Shown one piece after another: positions 3,390 to 6,586 of a stretch of DNA of 64,000 nucleotides (positions are counted from its first letter, which is position 1; every line of letters starts with the position of its first letter). Both the position numbers and the translations under genes were made by a program. A model generated the notes under the pieces. It had not been told where the DNA came from. It made no database searches and saw nothing but the letters and a program-made list of their open reading frames with translations. Source of the DNA: an uncultured Actinomycetota bacterium (GTDB lineage: Bacteria; Actinomycetota; Actinomycetes; JAFAQI01); assembly GCA_963770565.1 (NCBI GenBank), contig CAVYQE010000011.1:928001-992000 (forward strand), written 5' to 3'.

Positions 3390-3438
3390 GCGGAATAGGT
3401 TAGGGCGACTCGGTACCCAATCCTTGGAGGCAGCGCCC

Positions 3439-4479
3439 GTGCCGGCAATCGTCGACCTTCGCAGCGACACCGTGACGCGCCCGACCGAGGCGATGCGGCG
3501 GGCCATGGCCGAGGCCGAGGTCGGCGACGACGTCTACTCGGAGGACCCGTCCGTCAACGCTCTCGAGGCCGAGGTGGCCGAGCTGTTCGGGCACGGCGCG
3601 GCGATGTTCGTGCCGACCGGCACGATGGGCAACCAGGTCGCGCTTCGGATGCTCTGCGGGCATGGCGATGAGCTGCTCTGCGACGCGGACGCGCACATCG
3701 TCAGCTACGAGGCGGGCGGTCTTGCGGCCCAGGGCGGGATCCAGACCCGCACGATGGTGGTGCCGAACGGCCGCCTGACTCCCGAGGTGGTCGAACCGCA
3801 GATCCGGACGGTCGGCTTCCACGCGGTGCCCACCAAGGCGCTGGCGGTCGAGCAGACCCACAACCGGGGTGGGGGAGCGGTCTACTCGTTCGCCCTCCTG
3901 CACGAGCTGCGGGCCTTGTCCGCCGCGCACGGGCTCGCACTGCACTGCGACGGCGCCCGGATCTGGAACGCGCACGTCGCGTCCGGCGTGCCCCTGACGA
4001 CGTACGGCGACCTGTTCGACACCCTGTCGGTCTGCCTGAGCAAGGGTCTCGGCGCTCCGGTCGGCTCGATGGTCGTGATGAAGGACCCGGATCGGCTGGA
4101 GGCGGCGCGCGACCTGCGGCATCGGCTCGGCGGCGCGATGCGGCAGGCCGGCATTCTTGCCGCGGCCGGCCGGTACGCGATCGCCCATCACATCGAGCGG
4201 CTCGCCGACGACCACGAACGCGCGAAGCGGCTCGCGGCCGGCATTGCCGATGCGGCACCCGGCGTTGCCGACCCGGACGAGGTCGAGACCAACATCGTGA
4301 TGCTTGATGTGTCCGGCGTACCGATCGATGCGGTGACCCTCGCGGCGGTCTGCGAGGAGGAGGGCGTGCTCGTGTCGTGCATGGCGTCGCAGTGGGTGCG
4401 GCTCGTCACGCATCTCGATGTCGACGACGCCGGCATCGAGCGCGCGCTCGACGTGATCCGCCCGGCCCTCGCCGGTTAG
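3439..4479 (+). CDS. ltaE: Low-specificity L-threonine aldolase (PLP)
   Basis: DLRSDTVTRP, GDDVYSEDP, HCDGARIWN and CLSKGLGAPVGS motifs; GGAGG before GTG 3439. Confidence 0.92.
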   Translation: MPAIVDLRSDTVTRPTEAMRRAMAEAEVGDDVYSEDPSVNALEAEVAELFGHGAAMFVPTGTMGNQVALRMLCGHGDELLCDADAHIVSYEAGGLAAQGGIQTRTMVVPNGRLTPEVVEPQIRTVGFHAVPTKALAVEQTHNRGGGAVYSFALLHELRALSAAHGLALHCDGARIWNAHVASGVPLTTYGDLFDTLSVCLSKGLGAPVGSMVVMKDPDRLEAARDLRHRLGGAMRQAGILAAAGRYAIAHHIERLADDHERAKRLAAGIADAAPGVADPDEVETNIVMLDVSGVPIDAVTLAAVCEEEGVLVSCMASQWVRLVTHLDVDDAGIERALDVIRPALAG

Positions 4480-4482
4480 CGG

Positions 4483-5508
4483 CTACGGCACCGTCACCAG
4501 GCGCTTCCCGACCAACGGCGGCAAGTCGCGGGCCGCGGCGGCGAGAGCCTGCAGGTCGACGTCGACGAGCGCCTGAGGTCCGTCACATAGCGCGGTGCCG
4601 GGCTCCGGGTGCAGGTCGACCATGACCGCGTCGGCACCGGCCGCAATCGCGGCGCGGGCGAGCGGTACGACGAGCTCGCGCCGGCCGCCGGCATGTGACG
4701 GGTCGACGATCACCGGCAGGTGTGACAGCGAATGGACCAGCGGCACGGCGCTGATGTCCAGGGTGTTGCGGTAGGCGGTCTCGAAGGTGCGGATCCCGCG
4801 TTCGCACAGCACGATGTCGAGGTTGCCGCGCTGCGCGATGTATTCCGCCGCCATCAGCCACTCCTCGATGGTGGCGTTCATGCCGCGCTTGAGCATGACC
4901 GGCTTGCCGACGCTGCCGGCGGCCTGCAGCAGCGCGAAGTTCTGCATGTTGCGGGTGCCGATCTGAAGCATGTCGGCGTACCCGCTGACCAGGTCGACGT
5001 CCTGCGCGTCGACGACCTCGGTGACGATCGGCAGCCCGGTCTCCGCCTTGGCTTCCGCGAGGATCCTCAGACCGGCTTCGCCGAGACCCTGGAAGGCGTA
5101 CGGCGACGTGCGCGGCTTGAACGCACCGCCGCGCAACAGGGCGGCACCGGCGGACTTCGCCATCCGGGCAGCTGCGACAGTCTGCTCCGGCGTCTCGACC
5201 GCGCACGGCCCGGCAATCAGCGTGAAGGTCGCAGGCCCGATCGGCACCCCGTCGACCGACACGGTCGATGTCTCGGGATGGTTCTCCCGGCTGACCAGCT
5301 TGTAGGCGGCCGAGATCCGGACGACGTTGCTGACCCCGGGCAGAGCGTCGAGGTTCAGCGTCTCGAACTGCTCGACGTCGCCGACCAGGCCCACGATCGT
5401 GCGGTGCACGCCGCGGCTGACGAACGCCGAGCCGCCCGCGCCCTGCACCGTGCGGACCACGGCGTCCAGCTGCTCGGCTGTTGCCTCCGATGTCATGACC
5501 ACCACCAT
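4483..5508 (-). CDS. aroF: Type I-beta DAHP synthase with N-terminal ferredoxin-like (ACT-like) regulatory domain
   Basis: IAGPCAVE, RGGAFKPRTSPYAFQG, QIGTRNMQN, LCERGIRTFE and DPSH motifs; ~65-aa N-terminal extension. Confidence 0.93.
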   Translation of the reverse strand: MVVVMTSEATAEQLDAVVRTVQGAGGSAFVSRGVHRTIVGLVGDVEQFETLNLDALPGVSNVVRISAAYKLVSRENHPETSTVSVDGVPIGPATFTLIAGPCAVETPEQTVAAARMAKSAGAALLRGGAFKPRTSPYAFQGLGEAGLRILAEAKAETGLPIVTEVVDAQDVDLVSGYADMLQIGTRNMQNFALLQAAGSVGKPVMLKRGMNATIEEWLMAAEYIAQRGNLDIVLCERGIRTFETAYRNTLDISAVPLVHSLSHLPVIVDPSHAGGRRELVVPLARAAIAAGADAVMVDLHPEPGTALCDGPQALVDVDLQALAAAARDLPPLVGKRLVTVP

Positions 5509-5540
5509 CGCTGCGTGTCTCCTCGAAAAGGACCGGCACG

Positions 5541-5572
5541 AAAAAAGCCCCGGGCGAGTGCGCCCGGGGCTC
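5541..5572 (-). terminator. Intrinsic terminator of the aroF leader (attenuator)
   Basis: Minus strand AGCCCCGGGCG-CACT-CGCCCGGGGCT followed by a U run, about 30 nt upstream of the aroF ATG. Confidence 0.9.
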
Positions 5573-5592
5573 GTCGTTGCGGAGTCGCGCTG

Positions 5593-5655
5593 CTACTCCA
5601 CCCGACCGAGCGATAGCCCGGGCCTGGCGTAATAGCAAAAGAACCAGCGCGTCAC
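5593..5655 (-). CDS. Aromatic amino acid leader peptide MTRWFFCYYARPGLSLGRVE
   Basis: GTG ACG CGC TGG TTC TTT TGC TAT TAC ... GAG TAG; 5 of 6 consecutive codons are aromatic; lies directly upstream of the terminator and aroF. Confidence 0.82.
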   Translation of the reverse strand: MTRWFFCYYARPGLSLGRVE

Positions 5656-5664
5656 ACGATCATG

Positions 5665-6586
5665 CTACTCGAACCGTTCGATCGCCGCATCCTTGGCCTG
5701 CTTCGGGGAGAGCTCGACCATGTACATGGCGAGGAGGACGAGTGCCGCGCCCACGATGATCCGCGGCCCGAGGTGGTCCCCGCCGAGGGTCACGCCGAAG
5801 ATCCCGGCGAAGACCGGCTCCATCGTCAGCACCACCGCGGTCCGGGTCGGCGCGAGATGGGTCTGAGCCCAAGTCTGGATCAGGTACGCCAGGGTCGTCG
5901 CTGCGAGTGAGGTCAGCAGGATCGCGCCCCAGACGGCTGCATCCGGAGGTGGCGCCAGCGTGCTCGGGCGCGGCGATCACGATCGACAGCACCGCAACCG
6001 TGGTCAGTTGCACGACGGCAAGACCCGCCGACTCGTACGACGATGACCACTCGCCGAGACCGACGATGTGCAGGCCGAAGGCAAGCGCGCAGACCAGGGT
6101 CAGCGCCTCGCCGCCGCCGATCGAGAAGCCGTGCAACGAGATGAAGCCGAGCCCGATGGTCGCAAGGACGACCGCCGCCAGCGTCATCCGGTCGAGCCGG
6201 CGGCGCAGCAACACCGCAGCACACAGCGGGGTGAAGACGACGAAGAGCCCGGTGATGAAACCCGAGATCGATGCCGGGGTGTGCTGGAGCCCGACGGTCT
6301 GTGCGATGTATCCGCCGCCCAGGGCCAGGCCAAGCGCGATGCCGGCTCGCCAACCCTTTGCGTCAAGGCTCAGCACTGACCGTGGCCGGACCAGAGCCAT
6401 CGCGATCGCCGCGATGGCGAACCGCCAGGCCAGGAAGTCCATCACCGGCATCCGGGTCACCGCATGTTTCACGATGACGAACGTCGAGCCCCAGACTGCC
6501 GTGACCGCGACCAGCCCGACGGTGGCAAGACGTTGCTCCCGCGCGGTCGCCACAGGTACATCCTTCGGTATCGGTCTGAGCTGCAC
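5665..6586 (-). CDS. EamA/DMT family transporter (one frameshift near 5966)
   Basis: VWGSTFVIVK and multiple TM helices; the second EamA repeat (TWAQTHLAPTRTAVVLTMEPVFAG...) continues in a shifted frame to TAG at 5665. Confidence 0.85.

Follow-up and report, generated by a model that had tools for sequence, protein, structure and literature searches.

How does an actinomycete adjust the entry of carbon into aromatic amino acid biosynthesis? The entry enzyme, 3-deoxy-D-arabino-heptulosonate 7-phosphate (DAHP) synthase, sets the carbon flow into all three aromatic amino acids. Its textbook control combines repressors with feedback inhibition, and attenuation belongs mainly to the terminal branches (trp, pheA). 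The question is raised by aroF, a DAHP synthase gene in a stretch of 64,000 nucleotides (nt) from an uncultured Actinomycetota bacterium (assembly GCA_963770565.1, contig CAVYQE010000011.1, positions 928,001 to 992,000 of the forward strand). We call this whole stretch the window, and coordinates below are positions in it. A preliminary description had read the region upstream of aroF as a leader-peptide attenuator that senses tryptophan, phenylalanine and tyrosine. Conservation, codon content and alternative folds support this interpretation overall, with the exception of two of its details, a cysteine input and the lack of any precedent. As shown below, the leader is a real regulatory element that is conserved across at least 16 actinomycete families, and it is probably a ribosome-mediated (leader-peptide) transcription attenuator of aroF that acts on a leaderless transcript.

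The element lies on the minus strand. A TAGCAT hexamer (5667-5662), which can be read as a -10 promoter element and whose promoter function is putative, is followed after 6 nt by a GTG start codon (5655-5653), and this opens a leader open reading frame (ORF) of 20 codons, MTRWFFCYYARPGLSLGRVE (5655-5593), that ends with TAG (5595-5593). This arrangement is present exactly as it had been described. The opening codons are GTG ACG CGC TGG TTC TTT TGC TAT TAC, the last six of which form the presumed regulatory codon cluster W4 F5 F6 C7 Y8 Y9 (5646-5629). Half of the Phe and Tyr codons in the W4-Y9 cluster are the rare TTT and TAT. Upstream of the leader ORF we found no -35 or sigma-70 consensus, and the ORF has no Shine-Dalgarno sequence. 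As its GTG start lacks such a sequence, the leader is presumably translated from a leaderless messenger RNA (mRNA). Between the leader ORF and aroF lies an intrinsic terminator (5572-5541; -25.9 kcal/mol), which consists of a 12-bp stem (5572-5561 pairing with 5556-5545; 10 G-C pairs), a 4-nt loop and a run of six T (5546-5541). The GC-rich hairpin and its U-tail were thus located correctly in the preliminary description, and only its distance to the aroF ATG needs correction, from 30 to 32 nt. The aroF ribosome-binding site, GAGGAG (5524-5519), lies 20 nt past the hairpin and outside every predicted hairpin. The gene itself (4483-5508, minus strand, ATG at 5508) encodes a DAHP synthase of type I-beta whose N-terminus carries a ferredoxin-like regulatory domain. 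It scores 463.8 bits against NF006421 (cut-off 335) and 379.2 bits against TIGR01361 (cut-off 267.75), and contains the domains PF00793 and PF18152, the latter being the ferredoxin-like domain at the N-terminus. The gene beyond it (3424-4479, plus strand) encodes a threonine-aldolase-like enzyme and is convergent, so aroF is the last gene of its unit and the element would govern aroF alone.

A short ORF with some aromatic codons could arise by chance, and we therefore compared the leader with the rest of its own genome (4.43 Mb, 68.4% G+C). Among 67,495 short ORFs (10-45 codons, ATG or GTG start, both strands), the leader ORF alone contains at least five aromatic residues within six. At least four within six occur in 101 short ORFs, and only the leader ORF among them has a TAnnnT box 5-8 nt ahead of its start. 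The combination of a TAnnnT box, a short ORF and a terminator-like hairpin occurs at only nine sites in the genome. The fold of the 171-nt leader is more stable than that of 200 out of 200 dinucleotide shuffles (z = -3.8). In the long ORFs of this genome, TTT makes up 6.0% of the Phe codons and TAT 14.5% of the Tyr codons, which bears out the earlier remark that both codons are rare in this DNA. The leader ORF is not a chance frame.

Next, we focused on whether the element is conserved upstream of other I-beta aroF genes, where the preliminary description had called for conserved aromatic-codon ORFs and hairpins. Such pairs were found both in close relatives and across the class. I-beta aroF is present in 32 of 41 related genomes, and a homologous leader ORF with a W-F-(x)-Y motif, together with the hairpin, precedes it in 20 of 30 loci; nine loci lack it and one is too short to tell. 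Two of the 20 (L026 and L027), which belong to unpublished genomes, were left out of the later sets. Class-wide, 191 of 401 genomes encode I-beta aroF at E <= 1e-80. The class-wide set comprises 116 further upstream regions, all of published genomes, among the matches listed, to which the counts in this paragraph out of 116 apply, and a further 49 aroF matches lie outside the set. A short ORF with at least three aromatic residues per six was present in 74 of the 116 upstream regions versus one of the 116 reverse complements, and in 70 of the 74 a TAnnnT box also stands at leaderless distance (70/116). The other four ORFs were rejected as false leaders: three are the C-termini of the upstream gene and one has no box. 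About eight loci that counted as negative hold the same ORF with only two aromatic residues.

For a curated set, we required both the TAnnnT box and a GC hairpin with a perfect stem. A strong hairpin is present in 86 of the 92 leaders that have a -10 box, and the other six, which have imperfect stems, were dropped. The resulting 86 distinct leaders span 16 family codes and four named loci, with f1 denoting the family that includes this genome. The spacing from TAnnnT to the start codon is 6 nt in 25 leaders, 7 nt in 59 and 8 nt in two. Presence of the box was a selection criterion, whereas the narrow spacing was not. The leaderless -10 spacing seen at this locus is thus conserved (6 or 7 nt in 84 of the 86), and transcription would start at or beside the start codon. 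Leaders are 19-29 codons long (median 23) and begin with GTG (52) or ATG (34); the median gap is 19 nt from stop codon to hairpin and 42 nt from hairpin to aroF. In 72 of the 86 terminators, the 10 nt from the stem end contain at least five T. The stem core GCCCCGGG...CCCGGGGC is nearly invariant across all 86 leaders. As this would be unusual for a mere terminator, it suggests that the core has a second pairing partner.

The codons of these leaders correspond to what the regulated pathway ultimately produces. W, F and Y are found together within eight residues in 80 of the 86 leaders, F and Y only in five, and W and Y only in one; their order varies among families. TTT accounts for 88 of the 143 Phe codons in the leaders (62%) and TAT for 60 of the 129 Tyr codons (47%), versus the 6.0% and 14.5% found in the long ORFs of this genome. 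The Cys codon at position 7, proposed as a possible further input, is found only in this genome: the 17 other f1 sequences have Ser, Thr or Gly there. We therefore reject cysteine as a fourth input, as its codon is not conserved within f1.

A covariance model built from the 86 leaders (R1) revealed where else such elements occur. In its own 4.43-Mb genome, R1 has a single significant match, at 92 bits, with a runner-up at 19.9 bits. A search of 151 genomes of the class returned 66 matches of at least 41 bits, 48 of which are found no more than 150 nt upstream of a listed I-beta aroF (five of the 48 in unpublished genomes). Thirteen matches are in genomes of families that mostly lack I-beta aroF, and their downstream genes were fetched. 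Five matches could not be placed by position (G135:C91, G058:C62, G080, G107 and G151). The first of these (locus L249) precedes an aroF-like start that represents the second aroF copy of that genome, and the second (L247) lies upstream of a chorismate mutase gene. The fetched set held 20 non-aroF or weak R1 matches; those in G080, G107 and G151 are outside it. Three weak matches in the set (L248, L251 and L252) were discarded, as they are bare terminator-like hairpins without a leader ORF. All 16 fetched non-aroF matches that carry a leader (the 13 above, L247, and the weaker L246 and L250; loci L235-L247, L250, L253 and L254) precede a chorismate mutase type II gene (PF01817). Several of the PF01817 scores are under the Pfam cut-off, yet all fall on the same short protein.

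Chorismate mutase feeds Phe and Tyr only, whereas DAHP synthase feeds all three aromatic amino acids. The chorismate mutase leaders contain Phe and Tyr codons followed by a terminator (for example MTTANEFFYGYRIPVAS and MRQHTTFVFTYGIRPAGCHGRAA), and Trp occurs in one of the 16 versus 81 of the 86 aroF leaders (Fisher p = 7e-13 by sequence). Counted by family label, Trp is found in 17 of 19 aroF groups versus none of six chorismate mutase groups (p = 1.6e-4); both p-values are upper bounds on significance, since kin are not independent. As W is dropped where the target is chorismate mutase, the codon content tracks the position of the target in the pathway. No other single argument for the codons as the sensor is as strong as this match between codons and gene. 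We found no description in the literature of a leader before an actinobacterial chorismate mutase gene.

The leader RNA of this genome has competing folds. Hairpin 1:2 (5636-5592, minus strand; -23.5 kcal/mol), the anti-antiterminator, pairs the region of codons 7-13 with that of codons 15-20. The antiterminator (5623-5562, minus strand; -38.1 kcal/mol) has one side made of GCCCGGG and the 3' half of the ORF and the other made of the spacer and the terminator 5' arm. The antiterminator folds as it was originally drawn, and it is the minimum-energy fold before the terminator 3' arm exists. In a growing transcript without a ribosome, the best fold is hairpin 1:2 at 64 to about 90 nt, the antiterminator at 95-105 nt, and hairpin 1:2 plus the terminator from 112 nt onward. 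We modelled ribosome occlusion by cutting the transcript before the 3' arm and covering 13 nt downstream of the A-site codon. In this model, the antiterminator sequesters 12, 12, 11, 9 and 7 bases of the 12-base terminator arm when the A site is at W4, F5, F6, Y8 and Y9, respectively, and a ribosome at the stop codon masks the middle of the antiterminator helix.

Across families, the evidence for this second fold varies in strength. The transcript up to the terminator is more stable than its dinucleotide shuffles (z < -2) in 67 of the 86 leaders, and the part of the ORF past the last aromatic codon is complementary to the terminator 5' arm (p <= 0.05) in 40 of the 86. This complementarity is strong in families f26, f46, f41 and f40 and moderate in f1 and f4. 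In f26, f46, f41, f40 and part of f4, an exact copy, 7-13 nt long, of the family's own terminator 3' arm occurs 0-6 nt past the last aromatic codon, and this decoy copy changes jointly with the terminator from family to family. A single consensus antiterminator for all 86 sequences was tried and dropped, as the pairing register appears to shift by one base between families, a consequence of the near-palindromic CCCGGG core. Across families, we therefore judged the antiterminator by duplex and identity tests on each sequence, and alignment covariation was used within f1 only. On the 18-sequence f1 alignment, 95.5% of the antiterminator cells are paired, versus 33-47% with slid partners, and 97.7% of the hairpin 1:2 cells, versus 23-47%. 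Covariation within f1 amounts to one compensatory pair in each structure. In hairpin 1:2, this is 5622:5606, which is U-A in seven sequences, C-G in six, U-G in five and unpaired in none. Its partners are the first position of a Pro/Ser codon and the second position of a Gly/Asp codon. As the pair is kept while both amino acids change, selection acts on the RNA rather than on the peptide.

From these folds and the known logic of attenuation, we infer the following mechanism. Transcription would start at or beside the GTG at 5655, 7 nt past TAGCAT, and a ribosome would bind directly at the 5' end. With plentiful charged tRNA-Trp, tRNA-Phe and tRNA-Tyr (transfer RNAs), the ribosome would reach the TAG at 5595-5593, where it would sit between GCCCGGG and the terminator 5' arm and cover the middle of the antiterminator. 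The terminator (5572-5541) could then form, and RNA polymerase would halt at the T-run, 32 nt short of aroF. When one of these tRNAs is scarce, the ribosome would stall within W4-F5-F6-(C7)-Y8-Y9 and melt hairpin 1:2; the 3' half of the ORF, now released, would pair with the spacer and the terminator 5' arm, and aroF would be transcribed. Starvation would in this way relieve termination. Without translation, including on transcripts that read through from the EamA-like gene, hairpin 1:2 would form first and the terminator would follow.

Several observations weigh against the attenuator. On the structural side, the full-length leader at equilibrium adopts the terminator fold whatever the ribosome scenario, in 23 of 23 sequences (those whose automatically chosen hairpin was the terminator; in L029, another hairpin was picked). 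As the equilibrium fold is always the terminator, the switch must be kinetic and decided during transcription. Equilibrium folding was accordingly dropped as a test of the switch, because the terminator wins in all scenarios, and cut transcripts were used instead. Folding with and without ribosome occlusion, as had been proposed, thus supports the switch in part: stalls free the antiterminator on the cut transcript, whereas the full-length leader always ends in the terminator. On the cut transcript, the antiterminator is also the minimum-energy fold without any ribosome, and termination without translation therefore depends on the prior formation of hairpin 1:2. When the ribosome stalls at Y8 or Y9, no more than 9 or 7 of the 12 arm bases, respectively, are sequestered. 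The 5' arm is paired at 0.79 in real sequences versus 0.67 in shuffles, a small margin because any GC-rich RNA pairs with this arm. In families f20, f42, f45, f58, f9 and f15, the ORF and the 5' arm are no more complementary than in shuffles. Covariation within f1 is scarce, at one compensatory pair per structure and with structures derived from one aligned member, and the little variation makes it nearly uninformative. Fourteen of the 86 terminators have fewer than five T.

Further points of the same kind come from the distribution of the leader, the pathway and available RNA. Family f18 has no leader in any of its 19 loci, and several f1 genera have none either. Nor is aroF the sole entry to the pathway, as a type II DAHP synthase gene without a leader peptide lies at 1176-2483. 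In the closest published case, the aroR leader of Corynebacterium glutamicum, Tyr was without effect (PMC11802643, in the part available to us). The only RNA runs found, six from soil or rhizosphere, each matched two of 46 words (a share of 0.04). Four of them led to two contigs that cover only part of the aroF coding sequence (5351-5486), one of them at 90-95% identity; neither contig extends to the leader, so they are uninformative on leader transcription.

The aroF loci that lack the leader have features of their own. In the 19 f18 loci (within L122-L214), a TAnnnT box stands 6-7 nt ahead of the aroF GTG itself, which suggests that the aroF mRNA is leaderless there. A conserved box resembling ATCCTGACAGACGGAC about 45 nt upstream is a putative protein-binding site. 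In the f1 genera without a leader (L014-L020), aroF follows the EamA-like gene after 25-45 nt without a hairpin, and in several of them a conserved ATGAAAGACTGA-like motif occurs in the short spacer.

Can other explanations account for the leader equally well? The one that survives best accepts a real attenuator but holds that it has effectively one or two inputs, for example Phe, or Trp and Phe, and that the other codons are inherited or structural. The occlusion model lends it some weight, as the core of the terminator arm stays accessible during stalls at Y8 and Y9, where 9 and 7 of the 12 bases are sequestered, compared with 11-12 at W4, F5 and F6. The order of W, F and Y differs among families, which also favours fewer inputs. 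In C. glutamicum, the aroR leader before aroF (cg1129) carries Phe-Tyr-Phe codons (Mentz et al. 2013, PMC4046766; PMC11802643). According to the part of the report available to us, transcription of aroR-aroF rises under Phe limitation through ribosome stalling, whereas Tyr has no effect (PMC11802643). However, all three kinds of codon are kept in 80 of the 86 leaders, TAT is enriched just like TTT, and W is lost exactly at chorismate mutase, which leads to Phe and Tyr only. This argues that all three kinds of codon are retained for a reason, and we regard an attenuator with fewer inputs as unlikely. That all three amino acids are effective inputs is, in our judgement, somewhat favoured. The inputs may be unequally weighted, because the decoy sits just behind the cluster and a ribosome stalled at the last codons may cover it. 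The occlusion model predicts that the antiterminator is freed best when the ribosome stalls at the 5'-proximal codons (here Trp and Phe).

A second alternative keeps a regulatory leader but removes intrinsic termination from it: the leader would act through Rho-dependent termination, control of aroF translation or mRNA stability. The poor T-tract in 14 of the 86 hairpins is compatible with this, and precedents exist. As far as the accessible parts of the two reports show, Streptomyces has leaderless leader peptides without a typical terminator (PMC8079986), and leaderless short ORFs of mycobacteria act by translational attenuation (10.1101/834739). The hairpin studied here is, however, a canonical terminator of 12 bp and T6. 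The aroF ribosome-binding site lies 20 nt past it and outside all predicted helices, and across the leaders the terminator ends a median of 42 nt before aroF. This makes a route without intrinsic termination very unlikely.

A third alternative, which we consider extremely improbable, is a functional small peptide encoded by the leader ORF or a trans-acting role of the terminated leader as a small RNA, with attenuation of aroF secondary or absent. Within a family, the C-terminal half of the peptide is conserved (LGRVE in f1, for instance), and work on Sinorhizobium, in the part available to us, describes trans-acting attenuator RNAs and leader peptides. But changes in the C-terminal half swap the amino acid and keep the RNA pair (Pro/Ser with Gly/Asp). 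From one family to another the peptide sequences diverge widely; what persists is the aromatic cluster, the hairpins and the location ahead of aroF or chorismate mutase. No peptide family matches the leader peptides.

The preliminary description had itself named the last alternative, in which the hairpin is merely the terminator of the EamA-like gene and the aromatic ORF a chance frame. The hairpin is on the same strand as the EamA stop codon, 93 nt past it, and would also end EamA transcripts. An EamA-like gene is found upstream in 23 of the 86 leader loci, namely all 18 of f1 and five others; in the 360-nt loci, the search covered about 150 nt ahead of the leader. ORF and hairpin are both kept in the other 63 loci, where no EamA-like gene was detected, and no hairpin is present where the EamA-like gene lies directly before aroF without a leader (L014-L020 and L022, from f1 genera and a sister family). 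With the ORF unique in its genome and the reverse-complement control at 1/116 (among the matches listed), the EamA terminator as sole explanation is refuted for all practical purposes. A dual role is likely, as the hairpin in this window probably also ends EamA transcripts.

The EamA-like transporter gene (5665-6586, minus strand) is split over two frames, with the break between about 5835 and 5959. The ORF at 5660-6586 matches relatives up to about residue 209, past which it is out of frame, and the last 56 residues are in the ORF at 5665-5835. The stop codon of this second frame (5667-5665) is the TAG of the TAGCAT hexamer. In relatives such as L006, the EamA-like gene is in one frame. The split gene is either a frameshifted pseudogene or an assembly error.

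Two other features were noted in this genome. The type II DAHP synthase gene (PF01474; 1176-2483, plus strand), which has no leader peptide, lies 3 kb from aroF. A phosphofructokinase gene (PF00365; 154-1179, plus strand) overlaps its start via GTGA, and the two are apparently co-transcribed. Outside the window, at C11:419496-419537 (plus strand) of this genome (G000), a TAnnnT box, a 13-codon ORF (VGTTICLLLPGPR) and a terminator-like hairpin occur together. The ORF contains three consecutive Leu codons and is a candidate leucine leader peptide.

How does the aroF attenuator relate to known systems? Like the enterobacterial trpL-trpEDCBA and pheL-pheA leaders, it combines an ORF of cognate codons with hairpins 1:2, 2:3 and 3:4, here predicted ones, and an intrinsic terminator. 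Those leaders have a single amino acid as input, runs of one codon and an ORF led by a Shine-Dalgarno sequence, whereas three kinds of codon are mixed here on a presumably leaderless ORF. The trpL and pheL attenuators are represented in Rfam by the families Trp_leader and Phe_leader. Multivalent attenuators exist as well: in the enterobacterial thr and ilv leaders, codons for several end products of a branched pathway are mixed in one leader. Their inputs are Thr/Ile and Leu/Val/Ile and they are not leaderless, whereas the leader studied here is presumably leaderless and stands at the aromatic branch point.

Within Actinobacteria, the closest known case is the aroR leader of C. glutamicum, which likewise places a DAHP synthase gene behind a short leader peptide with aromatic codons. 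Unlike the leaders described here (W, F and Y in 80 of 86), no Trp codon is reported for aroR in the accessible parts of its descriptions. The comparison with aroR was made by its F-Y-F motif and gene name, not by sequence. The C. glutamicum aroF enzyme presumably belongs to a subclass other than type I-beta with a ferredoxin-like domain. The claim in the preliminary description that an actinobacterial attenuator of this kind had no precedent thus needs qualification: an attenuator of a DAHP synthase gene is known in Actinobacteria. We found no description in the literature of a W/F/Y leader before an I-beta DAHP synthase gene.

Leaderless or sensory leader ORFs have been described for other actinobacterial genes. 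Eight leaders are reported for Streptomyces lividans, including the leaderless leader peptides trpL1, leuL and ilvL and none for aro genes (PMC8079986), and leaderless poly-Cys short ORFs are reported for mycobacteria (10.1101/834739). For the upstream ORF (uORF) of Mycobacterium tuberculosis ilvB1, a ribosome at the stop codon has been proposed to mask an antiterminator (PMC13236596). As is presumed for the element described here, the S. lividans and poly-Cys leaders place a sensory ORF of cognate codons at the mRNA 5' end before a biosynthetic gene; the ilvB1 uORF is likewise a sensory ORF in a 5' leader, and a hairpin with a U-stretch is reported for several actinobacterial leaders. The parts of these papers available to us contain no W/F/Y leader and no DAHP synthase or chorismate mutase target. 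Seliverstov et al. (2005, PMC1262725) reported that Phe and Tyr operons of Actinobacteria showed no conserved RNA structures in their upstream regions.

In database searches, Rfam on window positions 5300-5900 returned no leader family (Trp_leader, Phe_leader, His_leader, Leu_leader, Thr_leader or others), the best match (E 0.0046) being an unrelated small RNA model on the hairpin, and 20 representative loci gave no Rfam matches at gathering scores. Pfam and NCBIfam searches with one and with nine leader peptides matched no family, and none fits MTRWFFCYYARPGLSLGRVE. Nine leader peptides gave no result in an exact look-up among 15 billion proteins, a search that is weak for GTG starts because these may be read as V for M.

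Beyond Actinomycetes, aromatic-rich short ORFs, most of them with W, F and Y, are followed by intrinsic terminators upstream of I-beta DAHP synthase genes in other phyla (L042, L045, L056, L068, L082, L093, L096, L100, L101 and L110, among the matches listed). The records are labelled Smithella/Syntrophaceae, Methylomirabilis, Limnocylindrales, Bryobacterales/Solibacteraceae, Geomonas, 'Aquilonibacter' and Veillonella. In a set of 70 loci, mostly from other phyla and again among the matches listed, at least four aromatic residues per six were found upstream in 18 loci versus six of the 70 reverse complements.

Taken together, our analysis points to an attenuator whose mechanism is classical and of which a related case, aroR, has been published. 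The gain is in scope and annotation, and the main value lies in the breadth of the family and in the codon swap between DAHP synthase and chorismate mutase. We tentatively propose, with about as much doubt as confidence, that Actinomycetes possess one modular family of leaderless attenuators whose codons are re-tuned to the branch point they control, with W, F and Y before DAHP synthase and F and Y before chorismate mutase. The aroF version would then be a three-input OR gate, with weights set by the distance of each codon from the decoy copy of the 3' arm. The codon swap is a natural experiment on how attenuators gain input specificity. The R1 model can be used to annotate leaders that are not covered by Rfam, Pfam or NCBIfam. 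In actinomycetes that make aromatic-derived products, the leader is a target for strain engineering, as its deletion should de-repress aroF. If the proposed attenuation is true, leader-peptide control of the shikimate entry step would be a widespread and uncatalogued rule, given the aromatic leaders in other phyla.

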